DNA of 64,000 bases from positions 640,001 through 704,000 of the forward strand of contig CAVXWP010000009.1 of NCBI GenBank assembly GCA_963765495.1, in the 5' to 3' direction. Below are positions 8,998 through 22,200 of this stretch, piece by piece. Made by a program: the position numbers and the translations under genes. The first letter of the stretch is position 1, and every line of letters begins with the position of its first letter. The DNA is from Blastocatellia bacterium (GTDB lineage: Bacteria > Acidobacteriota > Blastocatellia > UBA7656). The notes under the pieces were generated by a model. That model was not told the origin of the DNA, ran no database searches, and saw nothing but the letters and a program-made list of their open reading frames with translations.

Positions 8998-9010
8998 AGC
9001 CTCCGCAGTC

Positions 9011-9191
9011 TATCACAACTTGCTTTCAGAGTATCACGAAGTTGAAATAATTACAAGAGAGTGATAAACAGAAGTTATAGCGAATTATCACGATAGAATA
9101 TATTTTATAGGTTTTGACCTTAAAAAAAGAAGGTAAATTTTCATCTTTGTGATATTTTTATCTTGATTGAATTTCACTTTCGTGATAATAT
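9011..9191. promoter_or_regulatory. Divergent control region with palindromic operators and a rightward sigma70-like promoter
   Basis: TWTCAY-N4-KTGAWA at 9032-9047, 9139-9154 and 9172-9187; -35 TTGATT 9163-9168, 17-bp spacer, extended -10 TGaTAATAT ending 9191. Confidence 0.6.
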
Positions 9192-9207
9192 CTCCCTTGT
9201 CAGTTGA

Positions 9208-9220
9208 TGCTCTTTGACAA
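9208..9220 (+). promoter_or_regulatory. boxA-like antitermination element
   Basis: TGCTCTTTGACAA, close to rrn boxA TGCTCTTTAACAA, just downstream of the predicted promoter. Confidence 0.6.
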
Positions 9221-9369
9221 TCTAGCGCGAAGCTCTCAGGCCGGAGTTAAAGGAAGAACCCGGAAGAACGCGACGAGCGCAAAGGCAGGTCAAATATAGT
9301 AACCTGTCTGACAACACCGCAAACACTCACCTTAAACAATTCACCAATTCAAATCAGGAGGCTTTCACA

Positions 9370-9492
9370 ATGAAAGAGCAGCGCACACTTGAGCAAGTCA
9401 AGGCAGGTGACATACCGCAGGTTGAGTTTGAAATGACCGCCGAAGACTTTGACGAATGGTTGCACGAGGATGACCAAGATTATCCGTTCTAA
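9370..9492 (+). CDS. 40-aa acidic peptide ending EDDQDYPF (not in ORF track)
   Basis: RBS CAGGAGG, ATG 9370, TAA 9490-9492; MKEQRTLEQVKAGDIPQVEFEMTAEDFDEWLHEDDQDYPF. Confidence 0.65.
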   Translation: MKEQRTLEQVKAGDIPQVEFEMTAEDFDEWLHEDDQDYPF

Positions 9493-9573
9493 CAGCGAAG
9501 AGGCTAGATGGCTGGAACCCATCTAGCCTCTCGAAACTTCCACCGATTAAACGATGAAAGGATTTACATTCAA

Positions 9574-9867
9574 ATGAAGACTAACACGGCACCGACCGAC
9601 ATTCAATCACTCACGAACGACTTTTACCCGACCGCTTACAGCCTTCAACTACAGGCCGAAGAATTAGCCGCAGCCGATGACTTTGAAGGCTACAGCGAAT
9701 GGAGCGAAGACATTGAAGCCATCCGATTGGCAGAAGAGGAAGCCAAAGCATGGGAAGGCGCGAAGCCGGTTGTTTTGGATGATGGCGCGCAAGTGCTTAT
9801 CAAGCGCGAATGCGATCATACAGAGTGCTGGGTCCAAGTGCAAGAGATCGGAGAATTGGAGGCATAG
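9574..9867 (+). CDS. Small acidic hypothetical protein (97 aa)
   Basis: GAAAGGA RBS-like sequence upstream; about 23 D/E versus 6 K/R; follows a 13-bp perfect hairpin at 9499-9531. Confidence 0.65.
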   Translation: MKTNTAPTDIQSLTNDFYPTAYSLQLQAEELAAADDFEGYSEWSEDIEAIRLAEEEAKAWEGAKPVVLDDGAQVLIKRECDHTECWVQVQEIGELEA

Positions 9868-9871
9868 AGAT

Positions 9872-10154
9872 ATGAATCTGATTTGTTTTTCTGCAATCAA
9901 GGCAATCGGGCCGGGTGATGTATCAATTTGCATCACCCGGTTTACCGCGCCAAGGAGGCAAGGAAATTGCGCCCGCTCACAAAGATTGCCATGTTGCTTA
10001 TCATTCTAACTCATGGCGACTTCCGCGCATTCGGCCGCATTGGCGGTCAGATCACGCGACAACAAAGCGATGGGCTTTCAATCTTCGCAATGTCCGAACC
10101 CATCCCGCTCACGAAATAAACCGGGCATTCTACACAGCCCATTATTCACACTGA
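9872..10154 (+). pseudogene. Small HNH-like protein broken by several frameshifts
   Basis: Stitched frames read M-N-L-I-C-x-x-C...LHHPVYRAKGGKEIAPAHKDCHVAYH..GDFRAFGRIGGQ...KRWAFNLRNV. Confidence 0.5.
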
Positions 10155-10201
10155 CCAAGCCGGGGCAGGCAATGAGCTTGCCCCACATTGGAGGAAAGAC
10201 C

Positions 10202-10561
10202 ATGAATATTCATCAGATACCAGCAGCAATTGAGAGCAAACAACAGGAGTTGATAACCGACAGTGAAGACCTCGCAATTGTGCGAGAGCAGATCAAAGAT
10301 GCAGAGCTTGAGGCAATCTGCGAAGCGTCCGACGCTCGCAACGAAGACGGAAAGCAAATGTACACAAACGATAAACAACGCGAGCGCGCCGCCCGGCAGA
10401 GCATGAGAGCAGTCGCGCAGTACCAGAGGGACCGTGAGACAGCCCGAATACTTGAGCGCCGGGTTGCCTTGCTCACAGCAGAGATCGAGCGAATGCGCCG
10501 AGATTATCGCATCGCATTGATTGACTACGAACGCGTGCAATTAGGCCAGCGCGCAGCATGA
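10202..10561 (+). CDS. Coiled-coil hypothetical protein
   Basis: RBS GGAGG then ATG 10202; helical charged sequence with YTNDKQR. Confidence 0.7.
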   Translation: MNIHQIPAAIESKQQELITDSEDLAIVREQIKDAELEAICEASDARNEDGKQMYTNDKQRERAARQSMRAVAQYQRDRETARILERRVALLTAEIERMRRDYRIALIDYERVQLGQRAA

Positions 10562-10568
10562 GGTATAA

Positions 10569-10605
10569 CGGGCCGGTTTCAACAAGTAGACCGGCCCGCC
10601 CTTTT
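10569..10605 (+). terminator. Hairpin terminator of early operon
   Basis: CGGGCCGGT...ACCGGCCCG followed by CCCTTTT. Confidence 0.55.
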
Positions 10606-10727
10606 GGGTCAAAGATTACACCTACAACCCCATTCTTATGGTGACATAGACCGCCAAAAGTAGTATGCTCACCAAGCCATCCCCAGGTGGTTTCACTTGC
10701 ATTCGGTTTGCGAGTGAAAGTCTCAAG

Positions 10728-10973
10728 CTACAGATGGAGTCTGATGATTTCCGATAGTGTGCCGATCACAATCCAGACACTTCTCAAGGATGAAACTCCA
10801 CTATCTTCATCCTTATTGATTGGCTGACGACTTGGAGATGTCCCTGGCAGATTATGACCATCATCAGCTACGGCCACAGATTGAAAACTTACGCCTTGAT
10901 TGCTCATAGGCGTAGAAAGGAGGGGAACCGACAACGTGCAGCACAGAGCCGCTATCAAGAATTTTGCTTTCAT
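10728..10973 (-). CDS. 81-aa secreted/membrane peptide: signal peptide, short polar core, C-terminal hydrophobic helix
   Basis: RBS AGAGGT, ATG 10973; MKAKFLIAALCCTLSVPLL...AVA/DDGHNLPGT...VWIVIGTLSEIIRLHL. Confidence 0.65.
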   Translation of the reverse strand: MKAKFLIAALCCTLSVPLLSTPMSNQGVSFQSVAVADDGHNLPGTSPSRQPINKDEDSGVSSLRSVWIVIGTLSEIIRLHL

Positions 10974-11844
10974 ACTTACCTCTGTTAGTAGATTTTCGAG
11001 CTTATCTCTGCAAGACAGAGAGAAGCTGTTGCGTGGGTTGGTTTCTCTCGGAGACACAGCCTATGCACTCCGGCAATGGGACAGGCTGGAAGATGTTGGG
11101 AAAGCACTTGTCAGCCTGCCCCTGCCGGATTCAAAAAAGGCAATTGGATATTACTTCCAAGGACTCGCGGCCAATCCTAAAGCCAAAGGAGATAACCGCA
11201 AAGCCTGCTCGCTATTTGCTCGTGTTATAGACCAAGCCCCGCTTTACTTCCGAGCTAAAGCATTGGTTTCTATCGGCTGCCAAAATATTGCTGCGGGCAA
11301 CTGGCAGCAAGGCTATAACTACAATATCCAAGCTGCGTCATTAGCCACTCAATCGGAAGACTGGCTGACAGTAATCAATGCTCATAGCGCCATAGCAATC
11401 TTGCATTCGTTTGAAGGCGATCATCGCCGCGCCCTTGATAAATTGGAATCGCTATGGCCAATGGTGCGAGCGATCCACCGCGCCAATCCTGTTGCATACC
11501 TGGACTATCTCAACTCATTAGCCATTGAACTCAGCGAAGTAGGCCACACCGATCAGGCCCGCAACGCCATAAACATCGCTCTCAGTTCGTCTTTAGCCGT
11601 TCTCTATCCAGAATGGCACGAAACCGCCCGCGAGATTGAGCAAATCGCATCAGCGCCGGTTATTGTCATAGTTCCTGATCTTCAGCCGGAAACTCAATCT
11701 AAGCCGGAAAAAGTTCTTATCATCCTGCCTGTAGATACTTCGTCTCAGGCATCACCAAAGCTACTGCCCATAGCCTTTGCGATAGTCAGCATATCTGTGC
11801 TGATCTGTAAGAGTCGCCCTGCTCGCGCTCCACCTCTATTTTGA
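10936..11844 (+). CDS. TPR-like helical-repeat protein with hydrophobic tail and terminal RAPP motif
   Basis: RBS AAAGGAGG then GTG 10936; TPR-like repeats (AKALVSIG, AILHSFEGDHRRAL, YLNSLAIELSEVGHTDQA); ends SRPARAPPLF. Confidence 0.75.
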   Translation: MQHRAAIKNFAFILTSVSRFSSLSLQDREKLLRGLVSLGDTAYALRQWDRLEDVGKALVSLPLPDSKKAIGYYFQGLAANPKAKGDNRKACSLFARVIDQAPLYFRAKALVSIGCQNIAAGNWQQGYNYNIQAASLATQSEDWLTVINAHSAIAILHSFEGDHRRALDKLESLWPMVRAIHRANPVAYLDYLNSLAIELSEVGHTDQARNAINIALSSSLAVLYPEWHETAREIEQIASAPVIVIVPDLQPETQSKPEKVLIILPVDTSSQASPKLLPIAFAIVSISVLICKSRPARAPPLF

Positions 11845-12008
11845 AACTTCCTCAAAAATCTAGCCGGTAATCCTGACCGGGCATACCTACACTTATCCCC
11901 GGATAAATATAGGTGTGCTTGATTGTAGAACCGGAGCGGGCCAGTTCCCTGGAAAGTTCTTGACCCGCTCCATCTGTCATAACCGCCAATTAAGGAGGAA
12001 ACGACTGT

Positions 12009-12467
12009 ATGAGTATAGTGGATAAACTTACTTTTGAAGAAACTGACTTGAGCAAATCTCTGTTGGAAACTAAATGTATAGCTGCGCTGGTTGCTCAAAT
12101 TATCGGGGATGAACCCGCAGCTAGTATTCTTACTGCGCCGGGTGATGAGCTTGCGGATTTGCTAATGACAATTCGCAGAGGTATCACTGGCTCACCCGAA
12201 GAAATCCAACGAGCAGTCACAACAATAGATGAGGCTATCGAGTTATGCTTTCTGCATTCTGAGGCATACACGGCCGCATTTGAGCTATTCAAGCTTGAGA
12301 AATCAGGCGAGTTAGTAAGCGACACAACGGCCAGAAGCATTATAAACGAGGCCATAGAACAAGTCGAAATCCACAGCGAAGTATCAGCGAGCAAGAGCGA
12401 ACAGAGCAAGATTGAATCTTTTGAACAGCACGAAGATCACAAAGAAAGGCAAAAAGGGCAAAATTGA
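12009..12467 (+). CDS. Acidic helical hypothetical protein
   Basis: Strong RBS AAGGAGG; 152-aa ORF followed by a long hairpin. Confidence 0.75.
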   Translation: MSIVDKLTFEETDLSKSLLETKCIAALVAQIIGDEPAASILTAPGDELADLLMTIRRGITGSPEEIQRAVTTIDEAIELCFLHSEAYTAAFELFKLEKSGELVSDTTARSIINEAIEQVEIHSEVSASKSEQSKIESFEQHEDHKERQKGQN

Positions 12468-12481
12468 ATCGAGCAGAAAGA

Positions 12482-12522
12482 AATGATCATGGGGCAAGAA
12501 TTGTTCTTGCCCCATTATCATT
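12482..12522. terminator. Long hairpin between convergent units
   Basis: ATGGGGCAAGAA-TTG-TTCTTGCCCCAT with outer AATGAT/ATCATT. Confidence 0.6.
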
Positions 12523-12766
12523 TAATGAAATTCTCACGAATTTTGCCAGCCATATCGGTGTTTGCTTATCTGAGCCATACACCCTTATCACCAGGAGACG
12601 ATGGCTCTATGTCAAGAGTCAAACAAACGTGTAATCTTCAAGTGCTTGCCTCTTTACAGTAATACCAGCAGCACACTGTAAGGAAACAGTAATTGAAATG
12701 AATGCAATCAACTAAAAAAATCCGGGTAATGGTAGCAGCATAAGCCGAAAAGGAATCTTTTCGGCG

Positions 12767-14119
12767 CTATTTTTTCTTACCACAACCACCATCAAGACTA
12801 TCTCGCCATTGTCTGTGCTGCCATGAGAGTTTGCCTTTGTTGAATCTGACTTGCCAAAGATGGAATTGATCCTCTTGATTCTCGTGCTCCAAATCCCAAA
12901 AAGAATGAAGTCCTCCATCCTTCCAAAATTCGTAAACTCCTGCCATGCCATTTACGAACTCTTTCTGCTTAGCTAAGTTTTCAAATTGCTTTCCTATAGC
13001 CTCACGAGAAATGTCCGGGGAGGCTTTGGATAAAACTTGCTTTGCAATCAAAATGGCATCGTGTCCATATGCATAAAAAGAAGGTATATCAGCGTAAGAA
13101 CTATTTTCACGGCTAATGTTATAATAGAAATCTCGCGGTGCACCGAATGGAAATACTCCCCATACACATTCTGCATCATTACCTGCGTCATTAATAAACT
13201 CTTGAGTAGTGCTACCATCACTAACTATTACGATAGGTTTTCCCACAGGAAGTCTCAAACGCTTACGTAGCCTAGTAATTGTGCGAACTAATTGAATAGC
13301 TTTATCCGTCATACCAAAAAGGAGAATGGCATCCAGAGGCGTTTTTTTGTTTAAGAGCATTTGTTCCATCATGTAATCCAAATTGGCTTCATCAAAATCT
13401 TTAATTCTAGGCATGCAGCGGGTTCTTTTAGCTCCTTTCAGGGCTTTGTCAAACTCCCAACAAAGATTTTCTGAATATGCAGCATTATCCTTGTCCTTTA
13501 GAATTAGCAGATTGCATTCTTTGGTGGCGAAAGTATCCCCAAGCCCATTTACTATTTGCGCAGCTTGTTGGTAATTAGAAGGGGGAAGTCGAAGGATAGG
13601 GTAGTTCCAGTTGTCCTTGTTAGGTTTAGTCAAGTCTGTGCTTGTCGCTGCAATTAAGATAACAGGCATTTTATACCGATTGTAAACTGTGAGGGCTTTG
13701 GTCGCAACTTCGCTTTCGACAAAGCCCATCACCATAATATAATTCTCGTCTCTGCAAATGGTTTCAGCAATCTGCTGAGACATCTCTGGTACGTCCTTAT
13801 CGTCGTGTTGGATAAACTGAATATTAATATTCTTGCCCTTCAGTTCATTCAATAAGCCCGAATCTATTGCTGCATCAATACCGGCCTTAATCCCTGCCCA
13901 TGTCTGTTCTTCTTTACCTTTTACAGGGCCGACAAGTGCAATTTTGTATTCACTTAATTTTGGCGTGGGTTTTATGATCTCCCAAACCTTCACTCCGAGT
14001 ACAATGATTGAAGCAGCCAATATGAGAAAACTGAGTAAAGCAATGATCAGTGCCCAAGGCCGACGCTCCTTATATGCTCGCCTTGATTGCTCAAAATAGT
14101 CTTTTAGTTTATCTATCAT
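12767..14119 (-). CDS. Membrane-anchored type I periplasmic-binding-fold protein (LivJ/K-like)
   Basis: N-terminal TM; KIALVGP, DDKDVPE..A, MGFVESEVA, ATSTDLT, LRLPPSNYQQA, AYGHDA motifs. Confidence 0.8.
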   Translation of the reverse strand: MIDKLKDYFEQSRRAYKERRPWALIIALLSFLILAASIIVLGVKVWEIIKPTPKLSEYKIALVGPVKGKEEQTWAGIKAGIDAAIDSGLLNELKGKNINIQFIQHDDKDVPEMSQQIAETICRDENYIMVMGFVESEVATKALTVYNRYKMPVILIAATSTDLTKPNKDNWNYPILRLPPSNYQQAAQIVNGLGDTFATKECNLLILKDKDNAAYSENLCWEFDKALKGAKRTRCMPRIKDFDEANLDYMMEQMLLNKKTPLDAILLFGMTDKAIQLVRTITRLRKRLRLPVGKPIVIVSDGSTTQEFINDAGNDAECVWGVFPFGAPRDFYYNISRENSSYADIPSFYAYGHDAILIAKQVLSKASPDISREAIGKQFENLAKQKEFVNGMAGVYEFWKDGGLHSFWDLEHENQEDQFHLWQVRFNKGKLSWQHRQWRDSLDGGCGKKK

Positions 14120-14233
14120 CTATGCAACCCGATTGGCACAACTATATGTAGTTTCTACCGCAATAGATGAGCTAAGACAAGAGCAGACTCTTCCGAAACT
14201 TCTGAGTAAGGGCGCTTTTGATACTAAAGACTG

Positions 14234-14404
14234 CTAATTTGCTTGACGAGGCTCTTTCCTATTTGGCAAAACAGCCACGTTCTCTTGTCCAACTGGCAAC
14301 CAGATAACCTTCTTTTCTTTTTCGACAGTTGACTTGCTATTCTCTATTTGGCTACCAGCTTGTTGGCTTTGCTTAATTTTGTCTTCATCTTCTCTTGACA
14401 TCAT
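14234..14404 (-). CDS. 56-aa peptide (not in ORF track)
   Basis: GAGG RBS, ATG 14404, TAG 14236-14234; MMSREDEDKIKQSQQAGSQIENSKSTVEKEKKVIWLPVGQENVAVLPNRKEPRQAN. Confidence 0.5.
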   Translation of the reverse strand: MMSREDEDKIKQSQQAGSQIENSKSTVEKEKKVIWLPVGQENVAVLPNRKEPRQAN

Positions 14405-14562
14405 GAAAACCTCAAAGAAATGTTACTACTTTGTTATAGGAGCCGTAAACTGTCAAACTACAGCGGGTTGCAATCGAATGAAGAGACAAGTATGGGAAAT
14501 GCCTGTATCCGTGCAATATGTTGTTGAATCAATCTACTCACTCGTCTGCAACCCGCTGTAAA

Positions 14563-16140
14563 TTAAGAAACTCCCAAAGCGAAAATTTCCGTTTCAAATT
14601 TCTGGATTAAATTAGTAGGCTTGGCTATATCTCCAAGTATTAGTGAAGCAGTCATCAATTCCTCCATCCTGCGATACCGTTTGTCAAGGGACAAAAGATC
14701 ATTAGTTCTTTCCAAAACTGAATAGGCAACATCAATTGGGCTTACATTTTGCTCCTCCCATAGGGATTCTAAAGTTTTCGGATAACAGTAGAAGAGTGTG
14801 AAGAGGCAATGTGCCATATACAGGAATTCTTTCCACTCAGGCTTTGGAACATACCGGGAGTGGAAGGGAAATAAGTCGGGACGTTGGTCCGCATAATCAT
14901 TCTTCTCGACAATATCAGGCACATCAAATAATAGTCTAGTTCGCAAATTATCGCTCTCTATTAGTGATTGATATGCAGCTTTAGCACCAGTGCGGTTGTA
15001 CAAAGTTAGTGTGTTTAGTCTAACTTCCGCCCCGCTGTTTCGAGCCTTCAATGCCATTCTTAGCGTCTCTACTATATCCCCCCCACAGGAATGAGATGGG
15101 GGACTTATCAGAAAAGCACAGGTCGGCAATATACCAGCTTCAGCACATTGGGTCAATTTATAATCAAGCTGTGTTGAATGTTGCAAAAAACTCTTTTGAA
15201 ACGCCTTTTGAGATGACTTGCCAACAGCATCAACACCTGTAAATACAGAGGAACAGCCAGCCCTGGCCATCCAATTTATGACTTTTGCTGTCAACTGAGG
15301 AAATGTTGCATAACAAGTCCAACTCATATCTAATCGAGCAGCTTCTAGTTCTCGGCAGAATTCAATGGCGGAAGAAGAATTATTCAAAAAATTATCTTCT
15401 ACAAAGAATAGGTGATTAATACCCAGTTTCTTAAGGCGATAAATCTCCTCAAGTTTTGTTTCCACATCGAAATCTCTAAAACCGCTATAGTGTGTGGGGC
15501 TATAACAAAAAGTACATTTATATCTACAACCTCGCCCCCCCTCAAAATTGAAAATTCTCAATGGATTTACTTGGAAATACGGCTTCAAATCAACCAAATC
15601 ATAGTCGATGAAAGGCAATTTGCGAAGTCCTATATTTTGCAATTGGCTAGTAAATAGGCTACCTCGACCTTGTAAACCAACTAGCTCTGATACTATATGC
15701 TTTTTGTTCTTAATATGGGCTTCAATTAATTCTTTGAAAGGGGTTTCTCCTTCTCCTTCAATGACGAAATCCACCCAAGGGTATGTGTCCAAGAGGTCGT
15801 TCGCAATGCTAGAGAAATGCGGTCCCCCAAAAACCGTGATGGTGTTTGCCTTCCCTTCTTTTACTAATCGAGCAAGTTCTAACCCTATATGAGAATCAAT
15901 CCCCATCGAAGTGAAGCCATATACATCTGCGTCATGCGCTAGTAATACCTCACTGGCCTTTTGATAAAACGATGAATCCTGAAACTCATCATCAAGGTGA
16001 TAAAGAAGGTTAAAATCCAGAATGCTAACTTCGACGCCCAGATTGCGTGCCACCGTTCCGAGTCTAAGCAACCCTAGTGGTGGACTCAATTCCGTCAAGT
16101 CATAAAGCGATCTGGGAGGATTTACTAAAACAACTTTCAT
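14563..16140 (-). CDS. Cobalamin-binding radical SAM enzyme (class B methyltransferase-like)
   Basis: PPLGL, GGPH and GEGE in the B12-binding domain; GRGCRYKCTFC CxxxCxxC; FVEDNF. Confidence 0.92.
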   Translation of the reverse strand: MKVVLVNPPRSLYDLTELSPPLGLLRLGTVARNLGVEVSILDFNLLYHLDDEFQDSSFYQKASEVLLAHDADVYGFTSMGIDSHIGLELARLVKEGKANTITVFGGPHFSSIANDLLDTYPWVDFVIEGEGETPFKELIEAHIKNKKHIVSELVGLQGRGSLFTSQLQNIGLRKLPFIDYDLVDLKPYFQVNPLRIFNFEGGRGCRYKCTFCYSPTHYSGFRDFDVETKLEEIYRLKKLGINHLFFVEDNFLNNSSSAIEFCRELEAARLDMSWTCYATFPQLTAKVINWMARAGCSSVFTGVDAVGKSSQKAFQKSFLQHSTQLDYKLTQCAEAGILPTCAFLISPPSHSCGGDIVETLRMALKARNSGAEVRLNTLTLYNRTGAKAAYQSLIESDNLRTRLLFDVPDIVEKNDYADQRPDLFPFHSRYVPKPEWKEFLYMAHCLFTLFYCYPKTLESLWEEQNVSPIDVAYSVLERTNDLLSLDKRYRRMEELMTASLILGDIAKPTNLIQKFETEIFALGVS

Positions 16141-17448: not shown

Positions 17449-19198
17449 ATGCCAAAGACTGATATTTCGGTTTCTGAGCTTGTGGAAATGATTTCCAGAG
17501 GGGAACTTCGTCTCCCCGAAATGCAACGGCGCTATGTCTGGACCTCGACTCGTGTGCGCGATCTGCTTGACTCGCTCTATCGCGCCTACCCTTCCGGCAG
17601 CATACTCGTTTGGGAGACGGATCAAGCACAGCCCAGTAGAAATCTGGCAGTGCAACAAGCTTTTAGCCCGTTCGCCGGTCACAAACTCTTGCTGGATGGT
17701 CAACAGCGCCTCACTTCCCTTTCCGCTGTATTAAGAGGCGAACCTGTTATTGTGAAGAATAGAAAGCGGCCTATTGATATAGCTTTCAATCTGGATCATC
17801 CCGATGGACCGCCCGCTGAAATCCTTGAGATTGAGGACGATTCTACTTCTATGAACGGTGATGACGAAACCATAATGGAAGGTGAAGACGATGAGTACAC
17901 GCCTTCGATTCAAGAACGCCTCAGACAGCGTACCTTTGTCGTAGCCAGCCGCGCACTGTTGTCCTCGCCATCCTGGGTTTGGTTTCGGATATTTTCAAGG
18001 GAGAGCGAGCGACTGGCAACTGGTAAAGGGTCTGGTCTCTTCGCCTGATGATCCTGGTTATGAAGTTTATACCCGCCGTCTTCAAGCAGTAAGAGCCATT
18101 CGCAATTATATGTATGTCATGCAAATCCTTCCGCGAGACTATTCCTATGAAGAGGTCACGGAAATATTTGTGCGCGTCAACTCTCTGGGCATCAAGCTTC
18201 GCGGTTCGGACTTGGCTCTGGCTCTCGTCACCGCAAAATGGCCTAATTCGTTAAAGCTATTCGAGGAGTTCATTGATGAGTGTGAGGAAAGCTGGTTTAC
18301 GCTCGACCTCGGCCTGATCGTTCGCACTCTGGTTGTTTTCGCAACTCAGCAGAGCCGCTTCCGCACCGTAAGCTCATTGTCAAAGGAAGTGCTGGAAACC
18401 GCATGGGAGAAAACAAAAGATGGATTGCGATTCTCGATCAATTACTTAAAGGCAAACGCGGGCATCGAAGATGAAACGCTTCTTTCTTCGCCGTTCCTGA
18501 TGATTCCTATCGCCGTCCTGAGCGTGTTACGCGATGAGCGGTTATCGAGTGAAGATGAGCGCAATCTGTTAAGGTGGCTATACATCGCTAATGCTCGCGC
18601 TCATTATTCCAGTTCGAGCGAAACAAAACTGGATGCGGATCTGAATCTTCTCTTTCGCGGAAACGGGCCTGAAAGCTTGATGGGGCCTTTGGAGAGCCAG
18701 TTTGCCCGATTGATTATCGAGCCATCCGATTTTACGGGCCGTGGAGCGCGTAGCGCCCTATTCTCATTAGCCTATCTGGCGCTCAAGCACGCGGGCGCAA
18801 AGGATTGGTTTTCGGGGCTTGGTCTATCGCTTACTCATCAGGGCAGATACCATTTCATTCAGTTCCATCATATCTTCCCAAAATCGCTGCTGCAAAAAGC
18901 CGGATATGAAAAGGCTGAGATTAACGAGATTGCCGACATGGCTTTCATCACCGGTCGAACGAATCGCCGTATATCCAACAAAGCCCCGATTGATTACTTC
19001 AAAGATATAATTGCTCAACGTGGCCAGAAAGCATTGATCCAACAGCAAATCCCTATGGATGAAAAGTTATGGAAAATAGAGAATTATCGGGAATTTCTTG
19101 AAGAACGCAGAAAGCTTCTGGCCTCAATAATCAATGAGTTTATAAACCGGGCCTATGAGACAGGGGCCGTAGCGATGATTCAAACTGACAAAGACTGA
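17449..19198 (+). CDS. GmrSD-type (DUF262 + HNH) restriction protein; apparent frameshifts near 17980-18010
   Basis: LPEMQRRYVW, LLDGQQRLTSL, IFVRVNSLG, HHIFPK; split into ORFs 17449-18048 and 18110-19198. Confidence 0.85.
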
Positions 19199-19245
19199 AC
19201 CTTCAGTAGCTCTCAATTAAACAACCGGACCAAGAAAGGGTAGAG

Positions 19246-22200
19246 ATGCCGAGAAAGAAATCATCGAAGACTTCGGAAACTTCCGTAATAGATTATCGCC
19301 ACGAGGCAAAACGAAAGACAACCCGCCCGCAGGAATAGCTGCACGAGGCATGGTGCGCGAATCTCCAAAGGTCGTCTATGAGTATAATCCTCATCTGCCG
19401 CCTGTCTTGCGCTCGGACCCTACAGCAAGCTCAGATGTATTGCCCGAACTATTGAACATAGCGCGCACTCGCGCACTGACGGCCGAAGAGGCCGAGACGC
19501 TGGCCAATGCCCTACGTAACCACGAGCCGTGGCTTGAATGGGCAGGCAAGCGCGAGAAGAAAAGTTTTGAAGTTGATCCGGTTGCGCTCCACATCCACGA
19601 GCGCATCTCGACACAGGCAATCCTCAAGGTGGCAAAGCGCGAGGATGTTCAGCGGTCGCTGTTTGCCGACCCAGAGCAGGATTACCGCGAGGCCGTTCAG
19701 TTCTATCAGCACGATGTAGACTGGACAAACCGGATGATACTCGGAGATTCGCTGCAAGTAATGGCGAGCCTTGCGCGAAGAGAAGACCTCGCGGGCAAGG
19801 TGCAGATGATCTACATCGACCCGCCGTATGGGATCAAGTTCGCGTCAAACTTTCAGCCCGAAATAGGGAAGCGCGATGTTAAGGACAAAGAGAGCGACCT
19901 GACGCGCGAGCCTGAAACGGTGAAGGCATATCGAGATACTTGGACGCTCGGCGTGCATTCATATCTGGCGTATTTGCGTGATCGGTTTATTTTTGGCGAA
20001 AGAATTGCTCGCGGATACAGGTAGCATCTTCGTGCAGATTGGAGATGAGAATCTTCATCACGTCAGAGAGTTGCTGGATGAGATATTCGAAGCGCAAAAT
20101 TTTTGCAGTGTAATAACACTTGTTAAAACCGCTGGACAAAGTGCCGAGCTTGTTCCTAATGTATGTGATTATCTGCTCTGGTATGCAAAATCAAAAGAGG
20201 ATATAACATTCAATCAAACCTTTCGAGAAAAGATAGCTACCCCAGAAGAAGCTGGTCATTACAGTTGGGTGTTGTCGCCAAATGGAGAAATGCGAGGGCT
20301 TCGAAAAGAGGAACGTGAGGGAAAATCAGTTTTGCCAGAAGGCGCGAAGCTATACGCCCCTACCTCGCTTACCTCACAGGGTGGCAGTTCCGAAGGTCCA
20401 TTTCCGTTTGATTATGCAGGGCAGACATATACAATTCCTGTACGTGATCACTGGAAGACAAACTTACAAGGCATGGCGAGGCTGGCTCAAGCAGACAGAA
20501 TTCATATCGCTGCAAACAGTGTCCGATTTGTTCGATTCCTGGATGATTTTCCTGCGATACCACATACAAATTTTTGGGATGATACCGCTACCGGCAATTT
20601 TACAGAAACAAAAGTTTATGTCGTTCAAACAGCTACGAAAATCATCGAACGCTGCCTTCTAATGTCAACAGACCCAGGCGACCTTGTGCTTGATCCGACC
20701 TGCGGAAGTGGCACGACAGCTTTTGTTGCAGAACACTGGGGTAGACGATGGATCACGATTGATACCAGCCGCGTAGCTCTCGCTCTGGCTCGTCAAAGAT
20801 TGATGACCGCAACTTTTCCCTTCTACACGGTTAAAGATAGTAATGAGCAAACAGATGATACAGCCAATCCCGCCAAAGGCTTTGTCTATAAAACTGTCCC
20901 GCATATCACGCTCAAAAGCATTGCCCAGAACGTCGCCCTTGATTCCATTTTCGCAAAACATCAACCTCTGCTCGATGCGAAGCTCAATCATCTCAACCAC
21001 GCGCTGAAATCTGTATCATCAGAATTGCGTCAAAAGTTGCTGACAAAACTTAAAGAGAAAGAGAAACGCGACGGCAAGCGGTCTGTCACCGACGCCGACC
21101 GCAGACGTTGGATTTTGCCTAAAGGCGAGTGGATGGAGTGGGAAGTTCCATTCGATACGGATGAGGATTAGCCCGATCAACTCAAGACGGCTCTCGAAGA
21201 GTATCGCGCTGTCTGGCGCTCAAAGATGGATGAAGTTAATGATTGCATCGCCGCAAGCGCCGATCAGGAAGAACTCGTTGACCAACCCGAAATCGAGCGC
21301 AAGGTTGTGCGCGTCTCCGGCCCGTTCACAATGGAAGCCGTTATGCCCGCCGAAGAATCGCTCGAATGGGAATCGCCCATTGGCGGTCAACCCGACGAGC
21401 TTGAAACCTTTAATCAACAGGCCGAGGCCGAAGATGATCCCATCAATGCCGAAGCCTACCTCGACAAGATGCTCAGATTGCTCCGCGCCGATGGGGTCCG
21501 TTTTCCTAATAACAAAGTCGCCGAGTTTACTCGACTGGAAGCGATCAGCGGCGGCGAGTATCTTCACGCCGAAGGCGAATGGGAATCCGAAGACGGGCAG
21601 GCGCGAGCCGTCGCCGTATCCTTTGGCCCGCAATTCGGACCCGTGACCGCCTTTCAGGTTGAGAACGCATTGCGTATGGCCTACCGTAGAGGATTCGATG
21701 AACTGGTCTTTGCGGGGTTTAGTTTCGACGCCTCGGCTCAGGCTATAATTCAAGATGATACAAATCCGAATGTGCGATCTCATCTGGCTCACATTCGCCC
21801 CGATGTGAACATGGGCGATCTGCTGAAAGAGACTCCAAATAGCCAGATATTTACGGTGTTCGGCAGCCCGCGCACAAGTATTGACCAGACGGATGAAGGG
21901 CTATTCGTAATCGAGATGGAAGGCGTGGACATCTATAACCCCGTAGACAATACCCTCCTCCCCACGAACGCCGATAAAGTAGCCGCATGGTTTTTGGACG
22001 CCGATTATGATGGGCGGACGTTCTGCATCACTCAGGCATTCTTTCCAGACAAGAGCGCGTGGAAGAAACTGGAACGAGCCTTAAAGGGTGTGATTGACGA
22101 AGATCATTTCGATGTTTTCAGCGGCACTACATCCCTGCCCTTTCCGGCAGGCAAGCATAAACGAGCGGCGGTAAAAGTGATTGACCCGCGAGGCAACGAG

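Follow-up and report, generated by a model that had tools for sequence, protein, structure and literature searches.

Probable stall-controlled switches at the 3' ends of TPR protein genes in the Blastocatellia

ApdA, ApdP, and the RQH family carry the tetrapeptide Arg-Ala-Pro-Pro (RAPP) at the C terminus, a few residues before the stop codon (Sakiyama 2021; Fujiwara 2024; Morici 2024). They show the variants RGPP, RSPP, HAPP, and HGPP, have a conserved upstream segment that is specific to each family, and are followed by a gene on the same strand. In the stall register given in the text of PMC7897499 (Sakiyama 2021), the second Pro is the A-site residue. According to the text of PMC10987492 and PMC12992588, RAPP, RGPP, RSPP, HGPP, HAPP, RAPS, and RAPT occur in arrest peptides or their homologues or as arrest-permissive variants. 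The known RAPP peptides lie upstream of secA, secDF, or yidC, with export as the pulling force. SecM-secA and MifM-yidC2 have a comparable layout, with an arrest motif (RAGP in SecM) near the end of the upstream open reading frame (ORF), a structured intergenic region, and a downstream cistron. Here, we describe a family of tetratricopeptide repeat (TPR) proteins whose genes share the terminal motif, its variants, the upstream segment, and the downstream gene. One member lies in a 64,000-nt stretch of DNA from a soil bacterium of the Blastocatellia (Acidobacteriota; contig CAVXWP010000009.1, positions 640,001 to 704,000), which we refer to as the window. Control of the downstream gene by a putative RAPP arrest is well supported by comparative evidence. 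Judged from sequence, these loci are probable stall-controlled switches, and they would form a large undescribed, Blastocatellia-specific family built on a sensor-like cytoplasmic TPR protein. For the central step, that RAPP stalls ribosomes and so affects the downstream gene, we lean slightly toward its being true.

The TPR-like gene of the window lies at positions 10936 to 11844 on the plus strand and encodes 302 aa (P0001) from a GTG start as called in the ORF list, which also offers an in-frame TTG at 10900 as a second possible start. A first-pass annotation, made from the sequence alone, had placed a RAPP motif two codons before the stop of this gene, after a TPR domain, a Pro/Val linker, and a hydrophobic stretch, and had pointed to a same-strand gene after a 164-nt spacer. 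The sequence and its translation bore out the motif and the order of the tail, and the downstream gene at 12009 to 12467 proved to be a real, conserved ORF. The tail runs from the Pro/Val-rich linker through the hydrophobic stretch LLPIAFAIVSISVLI to the C-terminal CKSRPARAPPLF. Its segment with the hydrophobic stretch and CKSRPA (11749 to 11823, plus strand) would fill the exit tunnel during a stall. The putative arrest site follows as the RAPP codons CGC GCT CCA CCT (11824 to 11835, plus strand), after which come CTA and TTT (Leu and Phe) and then the stop codon TGA (11842 to 11844).

Searches of the window TPR protein against Pfam and NCBIfam gave generic TPR matches only, all below threshold (for Pfam TPR_12, 27.6 bits against a cut-off of 30.1). 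We modeled the protein with AlphaFold from an input alignment of 64 relatives. The model had a predicted local distance difference test (pLDDT) score of 86.8 and 14 helices; residues 1 to 240 formed a solenoid that was helical from residue 2, and the tail (residues 241 to 302) was of low confidence (pLDDT, 36 to 70). The top Foldseek matches were TPR superhelices (LGN, LapB, and designed CTPR).

We found that the terminal motif is conserved among homologues. The genome of the window (7.3 Mb, 53.7% G+C) has four further paralogues at 33 to 37% identity, three of which end in RPRAPPS..., with the motif 3 to 11 residues before the stop. With the window copy, RAPP is terminal in four of five paralogues, at a distance of 2 to 11 residues from the stop codon. 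The remaining paralogue lacks a downstream ORF and continues into a long C-terminal extension. When we scanned collections of genomes and metagenomes, we obtained 55 and 80 additional loci, nearly all from Blastocatellia metagenome-assembled genomes (MAGs) or soil metagenomes. Over all loci there were 161 TPR segments, 150 of which had a complete 3' end. A RAPP-like motif lay within the last 25 residues in 72 of the 150, and the other 78 lacked it. The 72 comprised RAPP (58), HAPP (4), HGPP (4), RAPT (3), RAPS (1), RGPP (1), and RSPP (1), and these tolerated substitutions coincide with the published arrest-compatible set. The distance from the motif to the stop was exactly 3 residues in 45 of the 72 and between 1 and 9 residues in 71, and the putative stall position lay 1 to 3 codons before the stop in 59. 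As an independent sample, we ran a profile search of 1.84 billion cluster representatives (50% clustering), which returned 754 proteins at an E value of ≤1e-30. Among the best 149 of the 754, 42 had the motif (26 RAPP, 8 RGPP, 5 RSPP, and 1 each of HGPP, HAPP, and RAPT), and 31 of these showed the same spacing of 3 residues to the stop. Conservation of the terminal RAPP across homologues, which the first-pass annotation had put forward as a check, was thus confirmed in both samples.

The constraint extends upstream of the motif and acts on the peptide. Eleven residues ahead of the motif are kept as I-L-D/E-R-[LVM]-x-x-C-I-x-P; at positions -11 to -7, the counts were I in 44, L in 43, D/E in 41, R in 48, and L/V/M in 59 of 64 sequences. 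At 50 distinct RAPP ends, Arg was encoded by six codons (CGC 35, CGA 5, AGA 3, CGG 3, CGT 3, and AGG 1), Ala by four, and each Pro by four. Since all synonymous codons are found at the motif, the constraint acts on the peptide. Taken together, the position, the substitutions, the codon drift, and the upstream segment make the terminal conservation what is expected of a candidate ApdA/ApdP-type arrest motif.

Could the motif be a chance product of an Arg/Ala/Pro-rich tail in a GC-rich genome? Of the 9,615 stop-to-stop segments in the window's genome that span 150 aa or more, 13 do have RAPP among their last 20 residues, most of them in frames with a non-coding appearance; 4 of the 13, however, are members of the TPR family. 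The motif is also kept across paralogues and homologues that are about 30% identical. Of 139 distinct complete members, 52 had RAPP within the final 25 residues and 1 had it at another place. As a control, we counted the other 11 arrangements of R, A, P, and P in the same 25 residues: 10 of them occurred 0 to 3 times each, and the eleventh, PRAP, occurred 32 times through mere overlap with PRAPP. The conservation data contradict chance, and we consider its probability close to negligible.

RAPP and RGPP are described in the text of PMC12992588 as among the most avoided tetrapeptides of bacterial proteomes, Acidobacteriota included. We counted tetrapeptides in 3,678 ORFs, each encoding 250 aa or more, from the window's own genome. 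RAPP occurred 5 times against 28.9 expected, RGPP 0 times against 23.6, and RSPP 2 times against 19.4, and the controls AAPP (39 against 39.1) and AGPP (31 against 31.9) occurred as expected. Two of the five RAPP occurrences were paralogues of the TPR family. On these counts, a lineage that purges RAPP elsewhere appears to retain it at one fixed place in one family.

The closest relatives of the window copy keep the tail better than the domain. P0002 and P0003 are 56% identical to the window TPR protein and share its CKSRPARAPPLF end, and P0005, of the same clade, ends in GPRAPPVG.... In the two closest orthologues, the tail (residues 241 to 302) is 77 to 82% identical to that of the window protein, compared with 49 to 50% for the folded domain, and the last 30 residues are 83 to 87% identical. 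The 19-aa hydropathy of LLPIAFAIVSISVLI is 1.96 and ranges from 1.96 to 2.29 across the clade, which is of transmembrane (TM) grade; the stretch lies 11 to 27 residues from the putative stall site. A metagenome scan with the window-clade alignment returned no relatives, and the best identities to the window TPR gene were 41% in the family-wide scans and 39% in a search of 53 genomes. In a quick tree of the TPR core, RAPP-type genes fell into at least three well-separated groups, and the window copy formed its own long branch. The family as a whole comprises at least 754 clusters at 50% identity and, in one Blastocatellia family, is present in 52 of the 53 genomes, where a single genome has as many as 24 matches.

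Several members of the family deserve separate mention. Two RAPP-type loci (L045 and L049, contigs CAYXVU01...) come from a MAG titled "uncultured Clostridia bacterium" and are nested in a Blastocatellia clade; the label is probably a binning or labeling error. One paralogue in the window's own genome (L005, G000:C8, minus strand) is split in the TPR domain by a frameshift or stop into ORFs at 1303 to 1938 and 2015 to 2434. It retains RAPP and an intact downstream ORF, and it has the best score in the genome for the leader RNA described below (E = 3e-19). The non-RAPP half of the family has an acidic helical C-terminal extension of 60 to 130 aa, as in L003 (1138 to 2283) of the same genome and in others that include L009, L013 to L015, L018 to L024, L027, and L048. 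In L027 and L048, a similar acidic piece forms a separate ORF of 66 to 67 aa, 10 nt downstream. Loci with the acidic extension have neither a conserved downstream gene nor the leader RNA.

We found that the RAPP-type genes are followed by a recurrent set of downstream ORFs. In canonical loci, the downstream ORF nearly always opens with ATG AGT ATA (Met-Ser-Ile). There are at least two unrelated kinds, which have a basic N-terminal leader in common. The first is a stand-alone AraC-type helix-turn-helix (HTH) protein of about 140 aa (HTH_18, E values of 1e-20 to 1e-30), and the second is a helical protein of about 146 aa that belongs to no known family and that we call type-1. The sequence MSIKEGSKRASAKS is found in both an AraC-type ORF (L034, 4012 to 4422) and a type-1 ORF (L112, 3494 to 3934). 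Because a near-identical leader sits on unrelated effector folds, the leader, or the A-rich sequence that encodes it, seems to be part of a portable regulatory cassette. Among distinct loci with room, an adjacent AraC-type or type-1 ORF was present in 44 of 63 RAPP-type loci (18 AraC-type and 26 type-1) and in 2 of 57 non-RAPP loci, both of them fragments.

In the window, the downstream gene (12009 to 12467, plus strand) encodes a 152-aa all-helical protein that starts with MSI. It is a divergent type-1 member, which matched the hidden Markov model (HMM) of the downstream ORFs with an E value of 1.3e-13 and which lacks the basic leader (MSIVDKLTFEE...). Its AlphaFold model had a pLDDT of 61 and five helices, and a Foldseek search with this model gave no matches at E ≤ 0.001. 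The protein matched no Pfam, NCBIfam, or PADLOC family, and an ESM Atlas search for known families gave no usable match. Three relatives are 80, 71, and 53% identical to it. Two of these are on contigs equal in size (21283 and 11354) to those that carry P0002 and P0003, so the pairing of the TPR gene with the 152-aa gene is probably conserved. A terminator-like 12-bp hairpin with T-runs on both strands (12489 to 12515) closes the two-gene unit. The first-pass annotation had suggested a system that works by peptide sensing and translational control rather than DNA binding. The contrast with DNA binding has to be revised: the downstream gene itself encodes an AraC-type DNA-binding protein in 18 of 66 distinct RAPP-type loci.

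The spacers of RAPP-type loci hold a structured RNA, which consists of two hairpins, P1 and P2, and the ribosome-binding site (RBS). P1 starts about 35 nt past the stop. The distance from the TPR stop to the downstream ORF in canonical loci is 135 to 152 nt (median, 138 nt). In a MAFFT alignment of 36 loci, P1 was 88.7% paired, with compensatory changes in seven of its eight pairs, and P2 was 82.1% paired, with compensatory changes in 8 of 12. In an alignment of 56 distinct hits, which was fitted to the model and hence leans toward it, the covariation score was 0.314; shuffles gave 0.196, with none of 500 reaching the observed score, and slid partners gave no more than 0.121. Of 66 RAPP-type loci with room, the covariance model, R1, found the RNA in 52, among them 19 of the 33 that lay outside its building set. 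It found the RNA in 3 of 63 non-RAPP loci; one hit was the RNA of a neighboring RAPP gene, and two were in frameshifted copies. Rfam gave no matches at E ≤ 1 in positions 9000 to 15000 of the window or in five canonical loci. The first 35 nt past the stop are poor in G (mean over 41 loci: A, 0.38; C, 0.24; G, 0.14; T, 0.24). Local folds placed at least three closing pairs between the Shine-Dalgarno (SD) sequence and the AUG in 41 of 50 loci. A third element that we considered, P3, is a local hairpin at the RBS that shares sequence with the 3' strand of P2; it had modest support (63.9% paired; 1 of 500 shuffles reached its covariation score), and we set it aside. A promoter scan of 11845 to 12008 found none, and by eye the other loci had -10-like words without a proper -35.

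In the window, the spacer (11845 to 12008, plus strand, 164 nt) begins with a G-poor stretch and continues with three hairpins on the same strand, H1 (11864 to 11880), H2 (11881 to 11918), and H3 (11933 to 11971). The first-pass annotation had named these hairpins, and folding prediction returned all three; their pair probabilities in the ensemble were about 0.7, 1.0, and 1.0. A 215-nt stretch folded at -62.6 kcal/mol (z = -2.45; 2 of 200 shuffles were as good). We found no DNA from a close orthologue for this spacer, and the window hairpins are thus thermodynamic predictions. With default filters, the spacer did not match R1. With filters off, it gave a weak match at 11920 to 12017 (12.2 bits; E = 0.0085 in 401 nt) that aligned H3 to P1 and lacked P2. 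In the comparison of spacer structure across homologues, another check that the annotation had named, the RAPP-type loci have a covarying RNA, and the window spacer could not be clearly assigned to it. A further R1 match at 19287 to 19386 of the window (E = 0.87) lies inside an unrelated ORF, and we treated it as chance.

Six loci have a second copy of P1-P2, at L035 4826 to 4952, L129 4326 to 4452, L105 4519 to 4647, L149 1052 to 1179, L057 1489 to 1610, and L043 4157 to 4265. These copies lie downstream of the first ORF and, where we translated the sequence, ahead of a type-1 ORF. In L035, the second copy comes after an AraC-type gene and precedes a type-1 ORF that starts with MS(L/M/I)KE. 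We found no RAPP-like ORF in the 330 nt before the second copies. The leader RNA would thus be an element in its own right, to which a stall would add a layer.

The RAPP tail might instead be a motif of the finished protein, such as a peptide for the TPR groove (docking or autoinhibitory) or a signal for degradation or anchoring, with pausing incidental and the leader RNA alone controlling the downstream gene. TPR domains, including those of the LGN type, bind extended peptides, and LGN-type TPRs are the best structural matches of the window protein. The TM-grade segment in the tails of the window clade would fit a tail anchor, and the six second copies have the leader RNA without a RAPP gene. 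Against this explanation, the residues past the motif vary, whereas the motif itself and its spacing from the stop stay constant, and the substitutions are those of the arrest-permissive set, not those of a generic binding motif. The genome purges RAPP, RGPP, and RSPP elsewhere, so keeping the motif in the TPR family has a translational cost. Moreover, RAPP predicts the downstream RNA and ORF, which a purely protein-level motif would not. We regard a finished-protein motif as fairly unlikely. The comparison shows that the motif, its place near the stop, the upstream segment of about 12 residues, the structured RNA, and the downstream ORF travel together in a deeply diverged family.

A number of points weigh against a stall that acts on the downstream gene. 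The published arrest-peptide work describes RAPP by itself as insufficient for arrest. The known RAPP peptides are 80 to 200 aa long (<300) and have an N-terminal signal or TM segment; the TPR carriers are 300 to 400 aa long and have neither. None of 64 TPR family members had an N-terminal hydrophobic window (19 aa, hydropathy of ≥1.6, within the first 70 residues). No recognized downstream effector is present in 19 of the 63 RAPP-type loci with room, and the window's own spacer bears only a weak resemblance to the family RNA. The leader RNA also occurs in six loci without a RAPP ORF, so the RNA can work without a stall. To model a stall, we kept 31 nt at the stall site unpaired as the ribosome footprint; this treatment is thermodynamic, and kinetic effects are beyond its reach. 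Over 40 loci, the modeled stall did not open the RBS (0.346 versus 0.368 unpaired; P = 0.33), and the footprint controls were similar (0.354 and 0.358; n = 40). Nor did it open the RBS in the window, where the unpaired fraction went from 0.41 to 0.36. Some minimum free energy (MFE) folds contain a direct helix between the RAPP codons and the RBS. We rejected this helix as a general feature: its covariation was reached by 58 of 500 and 109 of 500 shuffles, the duplex energies of matched and mismatched RAPP/RBS pairs were -17.48 and -17.47 kcal/mol (P = 0.49), and there was no accessibility signal.

These folding results bear directly on the switch that the first-pass annotation had proposed. 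According to that model, which is of the SecM/MifM type, TTCCTC masks the SD sequence, a stall frees pairings of the CGCTCC/GGAGCG type, and membrane engagement or TPR folding resets the system. The SD region of the downstream gene, AGGAGGAA (11993 to 12000, plus strand), is strong and has a GGAGG core that is paired about 99% of the time with three competing partners: the local CCGCC at 11983 to 11987 (0.39), TTCCTC at 11848 to 11853 (0.31), and the second Pro and Leu codons at 11833 to 11837 (0.27). TTCCTC is indeed complementary to GAGGAA (11995 to 12000), and the third partner lies inside the footprint of a stalled ribosome. Both would fit the switch, although the TTCCTC pairing holds in only about 31% of the ensemble and has no counterpart in other loci, and the local partner would keep the SD sequence paired; modeled accessibility in the window falls. 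The second pairing, CGCTCC (11826 to 11831) with GGAGCG (11933 to 11938), is complementary as claimed; its competition with H3 is not realized, since H3 is too stable and the pairing has a probability of 0.0. The MFE fold of the window pairs the RAPP region with the RBS, and among 45 control segments from the same gene, just one matches the RAPP segment in binding the RBS of the window (rank 2 of 45). That fold has an ensemble frequency of 0.0065, though, and the centroid leaves the RBS free. Modeled RBS accessibility rose in L006, L050, L057, L092, and L149, against no effect over the 40 loci and no covariation. With a ribosome stalled at RAPP, TTCCTC would also coincide with its leading edge or lie ahead of it. 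As for membrane engagement, the tunnel length implies that the hydrophobic stretch would be inside the exit tunnel during the stall and so could not sense the membrane, and the lack of an N-terminal signal or TM segment in the family points the same way; we therefore discard that part of the proposal. The text of PMC7897499 likewise reports no predicted SD-sequestering hairpin for ApcA, ApdA, or ApdP. The modeling does not favor direct SD unmasking, and we consider the specific RNA switch with membrane sensing distinctly unlikely.

We propose that a RAPP arrest module at the 3' end of the TPR gene would be one control layer over the regulator gene 164 nt downstream. The ribosome would stall with Arg-Ala-Pro in the P site and Pro-tRNA in the A site. 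From established ribosome dimensions, the tunnel would then hold the last 30 to 40 residues, including the hydrophobic stretch, and the TPR solenoid (residues 1 to 240) would be outside the ribosome, folded, and tethered by about 20 exposed tail residues. The parked ribosome would cover the stop codon and extend over the initial bases of the spacer. Because family members lack an N-terminal signal or TM segment, export would not be the releasing force, and the force would have to come from binding by the TPR domain. Binding of a partner or ligand to the exposed domain would most likely set the duration of the stall, and the parked ribosome would alter expression of the downstream gene.

How the stall would reach the downstream gene may differ from SecM and MifM, since the stall footprint in the TPR family does not extend to the conserved hairpins. 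In TnaC-tnaA, a ribosome stalled at the end of the leader ORF blocks the loading of Rho. The TPR family resembles this system in that the putative stall lies 1 to 3 codons before the stop and is followed by an unstructured, G-poor stretch. TnaC differs as a leader of 24 residues whose signal, free tryptophan, is sensed in the tunnel, and the stretch in the TPR family is short and more A-rich than C-rich. The parked ribosome could thus shield the G-poor start of the spacer from Rho, as in tnaC, or, equally possibly, could act through kinetic effects on the folding of the leader RNA.

A real stall might serve a different end, namely, to tether the TPR domain on its own mRNA, for assembly with the protein of the next cistron or for localization. 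The tethered domain could then capture the shared leader of the effector cotranslationally, in cis. Such a role would suit a folded domain that is fully exposed on a flexible tail of 60 residues, a spacer of constant length (about 138 nt) with two rigid hairpins, and unrelated effector folds that have the common N-terminal leader MSIKEGSKRASAKS. Binding of the effector by the TPR protein is hypothetical, and the window effector lacks the basic leader. Partnerships of TPR proteins with AraC-type regulators do have a precedent. In type III secretion, TPR chaperones pair with AraC-type activators, as in SicA-InvF and IpgC-MxiE. These resemble the present loci in having a TPR gene that adjoins a gene for an AraC family regulator, with a small exported protein as a third player, and differ in that the chaperones are small, with three repeats, lack RAPP and a leader RNA, and belong to a secretion apparatus. 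We judge a tethering role quite unlikely.

A small protein gene lies head-to-head with the TPR gene. In the window, it encodes 81 aa (10728 to 10973, minus strand), with a signal-like N terminus and a hydrophobic C-terminal tail, and its 5' end overlaps the TPR start by 38 nt. The protein matches the HMM of a family of Cys-rich secreted or anchored proteins. Copies of 81 to 117 aa have the same orientation elsewhere (also L002 2300 to 2644, L003 2234 to 2563, and L005 2265 to 2618). Most of them have a signal-peptide-like start, the sequence VALAGHT..G-W-C-x-C-G-x-x-G-C-I-C-D-P-G-E, and a hydrophobic C terminus that ends in W-x-R-x-R; the Cys motif is absent from the window copy. The family has no Pfam, NCBIfam, or PADLOC match. 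Among loci with room upstream of the TPR gene, 55 of 62 that are RAPP-type and 49 of 62 that are not had such a divergent small ORF there. The small protein could be an extracytoplasmic partner or signal of the TPR system.

A sensor-like TPR protein next to a small gene with a signal peptide recalls the RRNPP receptors (Rap, NprR, PlcR, and PrgX). The RRNPP proteins are found in Firmicutes and have a fused HTH or phosphatase domain, whereas the window TPR protein has no fused HTH, and their short propeptide contrasts with a small protein of about 80 to 115 aa with an anchor-like C-terminal tail. A Rap-Phr structure (6t46_C) was among the Foldseek matches of the window TPR protein, at rank 41 (E = 1.9e-3), no better than generic TPRs. 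One specific form of our proposal is that the TPR protein is a cytoplasmic arrest peptide that senses a partner. The TPR groove would capture either the effector leader (MSI-K/P-E/K-x-x-KRAS-x-KS) or a signal derived from the Cys-rich protein, and the resulting pull would free the arrest. The stalled ribosome would keep a fully folded TPR receptor attached to the mRNA that encodes it, some 140 nt ahead of where the regulator gene begins, and the TPR/AraC pair would amount to a split one-component regulator with its sensing on the ribosome. We think this form rather improbable as stated.

Two convergent genes follow the unit on the minus strand. The first (12767 to 14119) encodes a periplasmic-binding-protein-like product with an N-terminal hydrophobic segment (Peripla_BP_6, E = 1.7e-10), and the second (14563 to 16140) encodes a B12-binding radical SAM protein (B12-binding, E = 8e-14; Radical_SAM, E = 3e-9). 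A run of ORFs at 17449 to 21171 (plus strand) resembles, by eye, a restriction or defense island, in which the ORFs at 19350 to 20024 and 19978 to 21171 may be one methyltransferase-like gene split by a frameshift.

RAPP has been described outside the export context. CruR of Bordetella (Roy 2022, as cited in Fujiwara 2025) and RAPP/RGPP upstream ORFs (uORFs) of Streptomyces lividans are such cases, and in this they resemble the TPR family, where the downstream genes are AraC-type or helical and not Sec or YidC components. The text of PMC12992588 names regulators and sigma factors among the genes downstream of non-Sec RAPP uORFs, and release in CruR and the S. lividans uORFs is believed to depend on a ligand that acts on the nascent chain. 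CruR and the S. lividans uORFs encode small secreted or membrane peptides, unlike the TPR carriers. The survey of RAPP ORFs in the text of PMC12992588 (Fujiwara 2025) covered those of fewer than 300 residues, and most TPR members would have been missed because the median stop-to-stop length of RAPP-type members is 356 aa. The main text of that paper contains TPR, tetratricopeptide, AraC, and "transcriptional regulator" 0 times each, and its supplements may list such ORFs. Our full-text literature search found no paper that joins RAPP with TPR, AraC, or Acidobacteria/Blastocatellia. The TPR family would thus work like a RAPP arrest peptide and appears to fall outside any named family.

The known RAPP-like arrest peptides are small exported reporters on secretion or metal status. 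The carrier in the TPR family is a folded cytoplasmic protein, wired to a new covarying leader RNA and then to AraC-type or novel helical regulators. If the stalling is true, arrest modules can attach to ordinary soluble sensor domains, and the family offers a system for asking what frees an arrest without a translocon. If the partner-sensing form is also true, this would be the first arrest peptide powered by ligand or partner binding of a folded soluble domain, and it would answer the question, raised in the text of Fujiwara 2025 (PMC12992588), of pulling forces outside protein export. True stalling would also mean that a dominant soil phylum has a major unannotated signaling family.

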